Origin: Escherichia coli | Lineage (GTDB): Bacteria > Pseudomonadota > Gammaproteobacteria > Enterobacterales > Enterobacteriaceae | Reading direction: 5' to 3' (one strand) | DNA length: 64,000 bases | Assembly: GCF_013122565.1 (NCBI RefSeq) | Contig: NZ_CP053258.1 | Shown: positions 37,030 to 39,207 of the stretch, piece after piece | How positions within the stretch are numbered: position 1 is the stretch's first letter | Layout of the letters: each line of letters opens with the position of its first letter | Translations under genes and position numbers: made by a program | The notes under the pieces: generated by a model | The model's database searches: none | Told to the model about the DNA's origin: nothing | Seen by the model: only the letters and a program-made list of their open reading frames with translations

Positions 37030-37064
37030 TAGAGAAATGAAAAAAGCACCCGACAGGTGCTTTT
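37030..37064 (-). terminator. Rho-independent terminator after ihfB
   Basis: AAAAGCACC-cgaca-GGTGCTTTT hairpin; U-rich tract follows on ihfB strand. Confidence 0.6.
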
Positions 37065-37089
37065 CTCGCGTTCAAGTTTGAGTAAAAAC

Positions 37090-37374
37090 TTAACCGTAAA
37101 TATTGGCGCGATCGCGCAGTTCTTTACCAGGTTTAAAGTGAGGAACGTATTTTCCTTCCAGTTCTACTTTATCGCCAGTCTTCGGATTACGTCCGGTACG
37201 TGGTGCGCGGTAGTGCAAAGAGAAACTGCCGAAACCGCGGATTTCAATACGCTCGCCCTGCGCAAGAGTCGAGGCCATATGCTCCAGCATCTCTTTTACT
37301 GCATCTTCAACCGTCTTGGCGGGAATGTGCGATTGCTGGGTGGCAAGTCTTTCTATCAATTCTGACTTGGTCAT
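37090..37374 (-). CDS. ihfB: Integration host factor beta subunit
   Basis: 94-aa [37 protein letters not shown]…. Confidence 0.98.
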
Positions 37375-37428
37375 GATTCCTCCGGTTCCTTAAAGGCAAA
37401 TTAAGCGGCTGCTGTTGCTGCATTGATT

Positions 37429-37450
37429 AAGGGCGGCCGTAGCCGCCCTT
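37429..37450 (-). terminator. GC-rich hairpin between rpsA and ihfB (possible partial terminator/attenuator)
   Basis: AAGGGCGGC-cgta-GCCGCCCTT perfect 9-bp stem, 80 nt downstream of rpsA stop; no strong U tract. Confidence 0.4.
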
Positions 37451-37533
37451 AGTGCTTGATTACAGGACGAAACCTGCAATCTGTCAAGTAAACTCAACAA
37501 ACTTCGGAATAAAAATCCCGAAGAGTCAGAGAA

Positions 37534-39207
37534 TTACTCGCCTTTAGCTGCTTTGAAAGCTTCAGCCATTGCGTTGTTGGAGAAGTTTGCATCTTCCTGT
37601 TTGTTAACAGTTGCGATTGCATCTTTCTCGTCAGCTTCGTCTTTCGCACGAACAGACAGGCTGATTGCGCGGTTTTTACGATCAACGCCGGTGAATTTAG
37701 CTTCAACTTCGTCGCCAACGCTCAGAACCAGGGTAGCGTCTTCAACGCGGTCACGGGATGCTTCAGAAGCACGCAGGTAACCTTCAACGCCGTCAGCCAG
37801 TTCTACGGTTGCGCCTTTAGCGTCAACTGCAGTTACTTTACCGGTTACGATAGCGCCTTTCTTGTTCAGAGCAACCCAGTTGTTGAACGGATCTTCTGCG
37901 AGCTGTTTAACGCCCAGGGAGATACGTTCACGTTCTGCGTCGACCTGCAGAACAACTGCAGCGATTTCGTCGCCTTTTTTGTATTCACGAACTGCTTCTT
38001 CGCCTGCAACGTTCCAGGAGATGTCAGACAGGTGAACCAGGCCGTCGATGCCGCCGTCCAGGCCGATGAAGATACCGAAGTCAGTGATAGACTTGATTTT
38101 ACCTTCAACACGGTCGCCCTTGTTGTGGGTTTCCGCGAACTGCTGCCACGGGTTAGCTTTGCACTGTTTCAGACCCAGGGAGATACGACGACGTTCTTCG
38201 TCGATATCCAGAACCATAACTTCCACTACATCGCCAACGTTAACAACTTTGGACGGGTGGATGTTTTTGTTGGTCCAATCCATTTCGGAAACGTGTACCA
38301 GGCCTTCAACGCCTTCTTCGATTTCAACGAAGCAGCCGTAGTCGGTCAGGTTGGTCACGCGACCAGTCAGTTTGGTACCTTCCGGATAACGTTTAGCGAT
38401 AGCTACCCACGGATCTTCGCCCAGCTGTTTCAGGCCCAGGGATACACGGGTACGTTCGCGGTCGAACTTCAGCACTTTAACAGTGATTTCGTCGCCCACG
38501 TTGACGATTTCGCTCGGATGCTTAACGCGTTTCCAGGCCATGTCAGTGATGTGCAGCAGGCCGTCAACGCCGCCCAGATCAACGAATGCACCGTAGTCAG
38601 TGAGGTTCTTAACGATACCTTTAACTTCCATGCCTTCCTGCAGGTTTTCCAGCAGCTGATCGCGCTCTGCGCTGTTTTCGGATTCGATAACGGCACGACG
38701 AGAAACAACAACGTTGTTGCGCTTCTGATCCAGCTTGATTACTTTGAATTCAAGCTCTTTGCCTTCCAGGTGCAGAGTGTCACGCACCGGACGAACGTCT
38801 ACCAGAGAACCTGGCAGGAACGCACGAATACCGTTCAGCTCAACAGTGAAGCCGCCCTTAACTTTGCCGTTGATAACACCGGTAACAGTTTCAGCATCTT
38901 CGTAAGCTTTTTCCAGCGTGATCCAGGCTTCGTGACGTTTAGCTTTCTCACGGGACAGCAGAGTTTCACCGAAGCCGTCTTCTACTGCGTCCAGAGCAAC
39001 GTCAACTTCGTCACCTACCTGGATTTCCAGCTCGCCCTGGGCGTTTTTGAACTGCTCAGCCGGGATGGCGGACTCAGATTTCAGACCAGCGTCAACCAGT
39101 ACTACGTCTTTGTCGATAGCAACAACAACGCCACGAACGATAGAACCCGGGCGGGTTTCGATTTCTTTTAAGGACTCTTCAAAGAGTTGAGCAAAAGATT
39201 CAGTCAT
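37534..39207 (-). CDS. rpsA: 30S ribosomal protein S1
   Basis: 557-aa [35 protein letters not shown]…; six S1 repeats. Confidence 0.98.

Follow-up and report, generated by a model that had tools for sequence, protein, structure and literature searches.

The window analysed here, a stretch of 64,000 nucleotides from Escherichia coli, carries the genes rpsA and ihfB in tandem, separated by a spacer whose features are collected in Table 1. In sense orientation, beginning behind rpsA, this spacer presents a weak hairpin, a TTGACA/TGTAAT promoter that carries an inverted repeat, a GC-rich hairpin, and finally the ihfB leader. Between the rpsA stop codon and a point just past the GC-rich hairpin, the 109 nt of RNA are predicted to form four hairpins (z = -7.5 for folding). 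A 321-base neighbourhood of the spacer is present, with at least 99% identity and in one place each, in 5425 of 5426 complete E. coli genomes. That rpsA and ihfB are co-transcribed has long been known, and ihfB is described as having two sources of transcription, readthrough out of rpsA and one or more promoters of its own (PMC8942017; bioRxiv 2023.08.24.554578).

Given the positions of both genes in the window and in the MG1655 annotation (rpsA at 961995-963668, ihfB at 963828-964112), MG1655 (version 3) coordinates equal 1,001,202 minus the window coordinate. Positions published in the older U00096.2 numbering were raised by 777, which we take to be the offset to version 3, such that 962975 becomes 963752, or window position 37450. 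This conversion gave agreement within 1-2 nt at four start sites, three of them rpsA start sites found in both the Cappable-seq and the SMRT-Cappable-seq study.

Table 1. Features of the rpsA-ihfB region, in window coordinates.
Feature	Position	Strand	Basis or remark
rpsA, ribosomal protein S1 CDS	37534..39207	minus	
rpsA-ihfB intergenic region, 159 nt	37375-37533		flanking genes both minus
rpsA-proximal hairpin, CUUCGGGAU-UUUU-AUUCCGAAG followed by UUUGUUG	37495..37523	minus	terminator-like site
-35 hexamer TTGACA of the ihfB promoter	37482..37487	minus	read from sequence
Inverted repeat GAUUGCAGG/CCUGUAAUC, also written GATTGCAGG...CCTGTAATC	37457..37481	minus	covers promoter spacer and -10
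-10 hexamer TGTAAT of the ihfB promoter, 17-nt spacer	37459..37464	minus	8 nt before mapped start
ihfB transcription start site	37450 (MG1655 963752)	minus	first A of AAGGGCGGC
GC-rich hairpin	37428..37451	minus (sense)	perfect inverted repeat, folding, covariation
rpsA transcript 3' end	37425 (MG1655 963777)	minus	Term-seq and SMRT-Cappable-seq
Shine-Dalgarno sequence GGAGG of ihfB	37379-37383	minus	
ihfB, IHF beta subunit CDS	37090..37374	minus	
ihfB canonical intrinsic terminator	37037..37067	minus	terminator-like site in scan and mapped 3' end

The GC-rich hairpin and its neighbours in the spacer

On the plus strand, the palindrome consists of AAGGGCGGC (37429-37437), a cgta loop (37438-37441) and GCCGCCCTT (37442-37450). 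An extra T/A pair extends the arms to 10 bp in the output of the repeat finder (37428-37437 and 37442-37451), where they are 100% complementary around the 4-nt loop. As sense-strand RNA, the element reads UAAGGGCGGC-UACG-GCCGCCCUUA, a 10-bp stem with seven G-C pairs, one of which closes the UACG loop as a C-G pair; transcripts from the ihfB promoter retain 9 bp. Folding yields -20.1 kcal/mol for the sense strand (z = -5.1) and -18.3 kcal/mol for the plus strand, and none of 200 shuffles folded as well on either strand. The original prediction had described a perfect GC palindrome capable of forming a very stable hairpin, and this description proved exact.

It had also pointed to the absence of a following U run on either strand, and here too our examination agrees. 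The sense tail contains two U residues in 8 nt when counted after the full stem (AUCAAUGC) and three in 8 nt when counted from the last G-C pair (UUAAUCAA), compared with the approximately five or more, within the first 8 nt past the stem, that define a U-tract. A terminator scan of the window did not call the hairpin.

Perfect palindromes are common in this DNA, as the window contains 10 (arms of at least 10 bp, loops of 3-8) where 100 dinucleotide shuffles contained 0.42 +/- 0.76, an excess of approximately 20-fold. The GC-rich hairpin itself occurs in a median of one place per genome among 5425 E. coli genomes, even when words of 11 nt are included, and therefore it is not a REP-type repeat. 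Membership in REP/BIME or any other repeat family, which would bring many dispersed copies, is ruled out on the same basis. One variant E. coli strain carries a UAUG loop in place of UACG with the stem unchanged. A search of Rfam at a permissive threshold returned no family at its gathering threshold and only sub-threshold matches resembling terminators. The best overlap among these, to the terminator (3') part of PhrS, scored 16.8 bits where 37 are needed (E = 0.28) and was rejected.

Two other hairpins share the spacer. The inverted repeat within the promoter folds with -13.3 kcal/mol (z = -7.6) and can exist as RNA only in transcripts derived from rpsA. The Citrobacter version, GATTACAGGA-TTCG-TCCTGTAATC, is perfect and its loop is UUCG. 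Among E. coli, E. albertii, Kluyvera and Pseudocitrobacter, the arms differ by A-to-G changes that are tolerated as G.U pairs on the sense strand only, which suggests that this element is an RNA hairpin of the rpsA 3' UTR overlaid on the promoter.

The rpsA-proximal hairpin (stem-loop 37523..37502, -10.3 kcal/mol) follows directly after the rpsA stop codon and has a T-rich tail, TTTGTTG, making it the sole canonical-looking terminator directly after rpsA. No 3' end at this hairpin is listed in the Term-seq (PMC7815308) and SMRT-Cappable-seq (PMC6131387) passages that cover the locus. Moreover, it is not conserved outside Escherichia, and Citrobacter, Kluyvera and others carry unrelated hairpins instead.

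Within the ihfB leader, an additional CAACAGCAGCCG-like segment (37406-37417, minus strand) creates a short CAGCAACAGCAGC repeat in E. coli and E. albertii and is absent from the other Enterobacteriaceae compared. A candidate upstream ORF beginning with the AUG at 37423-37421 was discarded, as it has no Shine-Dalgarno sequence and its AUG is missing in most relatives.

Conservation of the hairpin among gammaproteobacteria

We compared 80 gammaproteobacterial ihfB loci, 75 of which have rpsA upstream. A single dominant hairpin, typically with a folding energy of -14 to -22 kcal/mol, occupies the spacer in nearly all of the 75 loci with a definable intergenic region. In Aeromonas, the corresponding sequence, AAAAGGGCGGCAUUGCGCCGCCCUUUUUU, has the E. 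coli stem together with a canonical A-tract and a full U-tract. Vibrio, Pseudoalteromonas and Halopseudomonas have canonical, U-rich tails (5-7 U in 8). Tails among the Enterobacterales mostly have 1-3 U in 8 and at most 4, with the exception of Rosenbergiella, which has 6. The spacer is only 60-90 nt long in many Enterobacterales (Yersinia, Rahnella, Proteus, Photorhabdus, Pectobacterium, Erwinia), and there the hairpin begins 0-16 nt after the rpsA stop codon.

Pairing is maintained while sequence is not. We aligned 22 distinct hairpins with MAFFT on the basis of sequence only, and the stems stayed in register. Paired bases fill 90.3% of the alignment cells, changes on both sides are seen in all 10 of the pairs, and none of 500 shuffles matched either the observed percentage paired or the covariation score, although each sequence had been chosen as the best hairpin of its spacer, which favours pairing. 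When the partner strand is slid by 1-3 columns, pairing drops to 40-55%. Among hairpins with four-base loops, 9 of 13 have a UNCG or GNRA loop on the sense strand and none does on the antisense strand, where approximately 5% would be expected by chance. The restriction of stable loops to one strand points to selection on the sense RNA rather than on a DNA palindrome or an antisense transcript. Relative to dinucleotide shuffles, the best local hairpin has a negative z score in all 31 Enterobacterales intergenic regions, and for 19 of these no more than 2 of 200 shuffles are as good, in a per-region test that is conservative for short regions rich in G/C runs.

The promoter has a narrower distribution. 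TTGACA-17-TGTAAT is preserved at its exact distance from the hairpin in 10 Enterobacteriaceae sequences, and the GC-rich hairpin is invariant in 12. Carriers of the promoter include Escherichia, Citrobacter, Kluyvera, Pseudocitrobacter, Superficieibacter, Pseudescherichia and related genomes, and the hairpin is invariant among them. In Yersinia, Erwinia, Pectobacterium, Proteus and others, the best promoter matches ahead of the hairpin reach 5-8 of 12 positions, which we judged to be no better than chance. Given that, beyond the Escherichia-Citrobacter group, a promoter cannot be recognised at this place in most Enterobacterales, any role of the hairpin at an RNA 5' end is specific to this lineage.

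Several other features of these loci deserve mention. A conserved motif, (A)ACGGTAGTT(T/A)AG, follows hairpins whose stems differ (loci L016, L018-L026, L030-L032 and L041) in Yersinia, Rahnella, Hafnia, Edwardsiella, Pectobacterium, Brenneria, Photorhabdus, Proteus, Budvicia and Arsenophonus. This motif might serve ihfB as a -10-like element (TAGTTT), or it might act as a signal for processing or ribosome loading. In Vibrio (L042, L044, L045, L047-L049), a canonical rpsA terminator, AAAAGGAGCC-GNAA-GGCUCCUUUUUU, is followed by approximately 160-200 nt that contain a conserved promoter-like TTGGAA...TACTATAAT ahead of ihfB, and thus resemble the E. coli arrangement with its parts cleanly separated. 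The Pseudomonas neustonica locus (L059) has a tandem array of approximately eight copies of the heptamer GCTTGCA some 100-140 nt upstream of ihfB; at this locus and at L068, rpsA was not found upstream of ihfB.

RNA ends mapped at the hairpin

Published transcript maps place an RNA 3' end directly after the GC-rich hairpin in two independent data sets. Supplementary files 1 and 3 of a Term-seq study of MG1655 (Adams et al. 2021, PMC7815308) list a plus-strand 3' end at 963777, supported by 9925 reads for growth in LB to OD 0.4 and by 5221 on the sheet for a second condition. The flanking sequence given there ends in ...GCCGCCCTTAATC, which fixes the end at the window position listed in Table 1, 3 nt beyond the stem, 6 nt beyond the last G-C pair and 51 nt before the ihfB start codon. 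The same tables assign this end an intrinsic-terminator score of 14.4, where a value of at least 3 suggests intrinsic termination. Its Rho score is 1.34 (class 'No', the effect of bicyclomycin not being significant), in a comparison that is confounded because transcripts from the ihfB promoter raise the downstream coverage. Other plus-strand 3' ends nearby in the Term-seq passage are 961969 and 964165, and the latter (window 37037) marks the ihfB terminator, which SMRT-Cappable-seq places at 964164 (PMC6131387).

SMRT-Cappable-seq captures full-length primary transcripts, and its Supplementary Data 1 (Yan et al. 2018, PMC6131387) labels 963777 as 'novelTTS'. Of 337 reads that begin at the rpsA start site 961720, 109 end at 963777, a further 9 stop no more than 50 nt downstream of it and 67 continue past it; of 77 reads from the start site 961861, 38 end there and 15 pass. 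By these counts, readthrough amounts to 36% and 28%, respectively, and bicistronic rpsA-ihfB transcripts appear in Supplementary Data 2. A discrete in vivo 3' end a few nucleotides past the stem is what is seen at intrinsic terminators, although neither method distinguishes termination from the trimming of a longer RNA back to a stable hairpin. The end and the readthrough fraction indicate that the hairpin behaves as a partial stop or as a site of 3'-end formation. Thus, the transcript end anticipated by the original prediction does exist in the published data. The prediction had invoked a partial, factor-dependent or RNase-processing site controlling rpsA-to-ihfB readthrough; its partial stop is supported by these maps, whereas an involvement of Rho or RNase III is not supported, for reasons considered below.

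The same hairpin lies at the beginning of another RNA. Cappable-seq places the ihfB start at U00096.2 position 962975 with a score of 364.9 (Ettwiller et al. 2016, PMC4782308), and SMRT-Cappable-seq reports a transcript from 963751 to 964164 that contains ihfB (b0912) alone (PMC6131387). The long-read start corresponds to window position 37451, the extra base of the hairpin, which is also paired. Consequently, the stem starts within approximately 0-2 nt of the primary 5' end whether 37450 or 37451 is used. Because ihfB transcription begins with the first base of the palindrome, the monocistronic ihfB mRNA carries the hairpin at its very 5' end, and a leader of 54 nt connects the hairpin to the ihfB start codon. 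The -35 and -10 elements fit this experimental start site despite the failure of a generic promoter scan, which missed them because the -10 hexamer has a G at its second position. The original prediction of a site governing rpsA-to-ihfB readthrough is partly supported, but it overlooked the ihfB promoter and the fact that the hairpin also forms an ihfB 5' end.

A second Cappable-seq start (score 111.7; PMC4782308) is located at 37403 on the minus strand (MG1655 963799; U00096.2 963022), 25 nt downstream of the hairpin, with an enrichment close to that of the main site. No -10 hexamer was recognised in the sequence for this start, which may be the sigma-38-preferring ihfBp2 (bioRxiv 2023.08.24.554578). 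Because it lies downstream of the hairpin, its transcripts lack the structure. The relative strength of the main ihfB start also differs between methods. Cappable-seq scores it as being as strong as the main rpsA start (364.9 and 318.6; PMC4782308), and SMRT-Cappable-seq gives 32 long reads for ihfB and 337 for rpsA (PMC6131387). The low ihfB count could reflect size bias against a 413-nt RNA, growth conditions, or termination at +26.

Origin and possible functions of the hairpin

We consider it probable that the GC-rich hairpin is a leaky terminator or 3'-protective hairpin of rpsA that has been recruited to form the 5' terminus of ihfB mRNA. It may have descended from an rpsA intrinsic terminator whose U-tract decayed in the Enterobacterales. 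Approximately two-thirds of the primary rpsA transcripts end 3 nt past the hairpin and approximately one-third run on into ihfB, and the very stable C(UACG)G structure would then shield the rpsA 3' end from 3'-exonucleases. In Escherichia, Citrobacter, Kluyvera and their relatives, a strong TTGACA-17-TGTAAT promoter lies immediately upstream, inside the rpsA 3' UTR, and its ihfB primary transcripts open with a base of the hairpin that is already paired, so that they have no single-stranded 5' end. The absence of a canonical U-tract speaks against leaky termination. However, the tail UUAAUC is all A/U up to the mapped end, and together with the very strong hairpin this makes weak intrinsic termination plausible. 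We infer that leaky termination, rather than trimming, generates the 3' end. If the element is a true terminator, approximately two-thirds of the transcripts from the ihfB promoter should stop at +26.

It is possible, but in our view unlikely, that no termination occurs and that the 3' end results from processing only. In that case rpsA-ihfB RNAs would end at the ihfB terminator or elsewhere, be cut in the A/U-rich single strand that follows the hairpin (RNase E is one candidate) and then be trimmed in the 3' to 5' direction until the hairpin blocks PNPase or RNase II. Stabilisers of 3' ends that consist of a hairpin only, in the manner of REP elements, are well established. The missing U-tract, the distance of just 3 nt between stem and mapped end (at which exonucleases typically stall) and the bicistronic transcripts among the SMRT-Cappable-seq entries (PMC6131387) are all in keeping with this route. 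Nevertheless, the homologous hairpin is a canonical terminator in Aeromonas, Vibrio and Halopseudomonas. The preference of RNase E, RN↓WUU, is also not matched by the sequence around the 3' end. Furthermore, the A/U tail makes for a weak hybrid, and the published intrinsic-terminator score listed for this end (PMC7815308) is high. Rho-dependent termination downstream of rpsA with subsequent trimming back to the hairpin would be in line with the factor-dependent stop of the original prediction, and hairpin-capped ends of Rho-dependent transcripts are described in Dar & Sorek 2018 (PMC6061677). We regard this as very unlikely, because the Term-seq Rho score, with the confounding by the ihfB promoter noted above, reveals no significant effect of bicyclomycin (PMC7815308), the 109-nt rpsA 3' UTR is so highly structured as to be unfavourable for a Rho utilisation site, and only 51 nt lie between the hairpin and translated ihfB.

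Cleavage of the hairpin by RNase III to separate rpsA from ihfB, another element of the original prediction, can be given next to no credence. The mapped end lies outside the stem and not inside it, as placed by the Term-seq entry. RNase III sites do serve the nearby rpsO-pnp and rnc operons, but the enzyme needs approximately two helical turns, or about 20 bp, of double-stranded RNA, whereas this stem has only 10 bp. The palindrome might instead act as DNA, forming an operator at +1 to +22 of the ihfB promoter that binds a dimeric regulator or IHF itself. A perfect palindrome does overlap the start site, and an IHF-like core, AATCAAGCACTAA, with one mismatch to the consensus, covers -10 to +2. 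In addition, autoregulation of ihfB is reported in PMC8942017, which cites Aviv 1994. An operator is nonetheless extremely unlikely when the stem sequence changes completely between genera with pairing kept, stable RNA tetraloops are confined to the sense strand, and species that have no promoter there still possess the hairpin. The one-mismatch core overlapping -10/+1 is not conserved even within the Enterobacteriaceae, and we rejected it as an IHF autoregulatory site.

A leaky rpsA terminator that also begins the ihfB mRNA may affect RNA stability. Stem-loops at the 5' terminus of the ompA type protect mRNAs by slowing 5'-end-dependent decay through RppH and RNase E, and work from the Belasco laboratory on these two enzymes is said to have established the protective effect. 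The fully paired 5' end of ihfB mRNA is expected to hinder this decay pathway and thereby to stabilise the message, and the hairpin would presumably stabilise rpsA mRNA or ihfB mRNA in the cell. Measurements in Salmonella at 7 h gave mRNA half-lives of 4.93 min for ihfB and 2.19 min for ihfA (PMC8942017). Equipping the ihfA coding sequence with ihfB UTRs raised its half-life from 2.19 to 3.38 min, and equipping the ihfB coding sequence with ihfA UTRs lowered its half-life from 4.93 to 2.64 min, in a design that was not aimed at the hairpin and exchanged 5' and 3' UTRs together (PMC8942017). Part of the stability therefore appears to move with the ihfB UTRs, which is consistent with protection by the hairpin.

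The element shares characteristics with several known systems. As in leaky intrinsic terminators with imperfect U-tracts, the stem is GC-rich and its tetraloop extra-stable, the 3' end mapped in vivo is precise and readthrough is partial. The element is also homologous to the canonical rpsA terminators of Aeromonas and Vibrio, and its published score as a terminator is high. It departs from intrinsic terminators in the U-poor tail that follows its last G-C pair, and factor-independent release is only presumed. Like the stabilisers of the ompA type, the ihfB stem begins at nucleotide 1 with no single-stranded 5' tail, a geometry that blocks 5'-end-dependent decay by RNase E and RppH; unlike them, it is located 54 nt upstream of the start codon and is common to the 3' end of the upstream gene. 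Like 3' stabilisers of the REP type, it is a stable hairpin that lacks a U-tract, lies between genes transcribed together and marks where the upstream mRNA ends, but it is single-copy, is not a REP/BIME element and has been inherited vertically with rpsA. Finally, as with other internal operon promoters, ihfB in the cmk-rpsA-ihfB operon is fed both by readthrough and by its own promoters (ihfBp and ihfBp2).

A more elaborate scheme can be envisaged, which we offer tentatively and with some doubt. Loss of the U-tract would have allowed co-transcription of rpsA and ihfB, and insertion of a promoter in the Enterobacteriaceae would have set the start on the first base of the hairpin, which would then cap both the rpsA 3' end and the ihfB 5' end. 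Transcripts from this promoter might attenuate themselves at +26 and release a 26-nt RNA, predicted to be AAGGGCGGCUACGGCCGCCCUUAAUC. Combined with occlusion of the promoter by rpsA readthrough, this arrangement might constitute a switch for ihfB expression, driven by readthrough during fast growth and by the promoter during slow growth.

Both RNA ends are already contained in public data sets, where they have gone unremarked, and the locus has already been described as an operon with internal promoters. The published descriptions covered do not mention that the ihfB start and the first base of the hairpin at the rpsA 3' end are the same nucleotide. Likewise, the literature searched on rpsA-ihfB, and on ihfB together with hairpins or stem-loops, contained nothing specific. 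The hairpin is an ordinary leaky terminator-type element in an unusually neat double position, and otherwise a well-behaved example of known RNA-end biology. Its setting lends it wider relevance, since IHF and ribosomal protein S1 are central and abundant proteins, and the balance of ihfB and ihfA is set in part by mRNA stability. A single conserved hairpin at which the rpsA message ends and the ihfB message begins offers a precise and mutable handle on this system.
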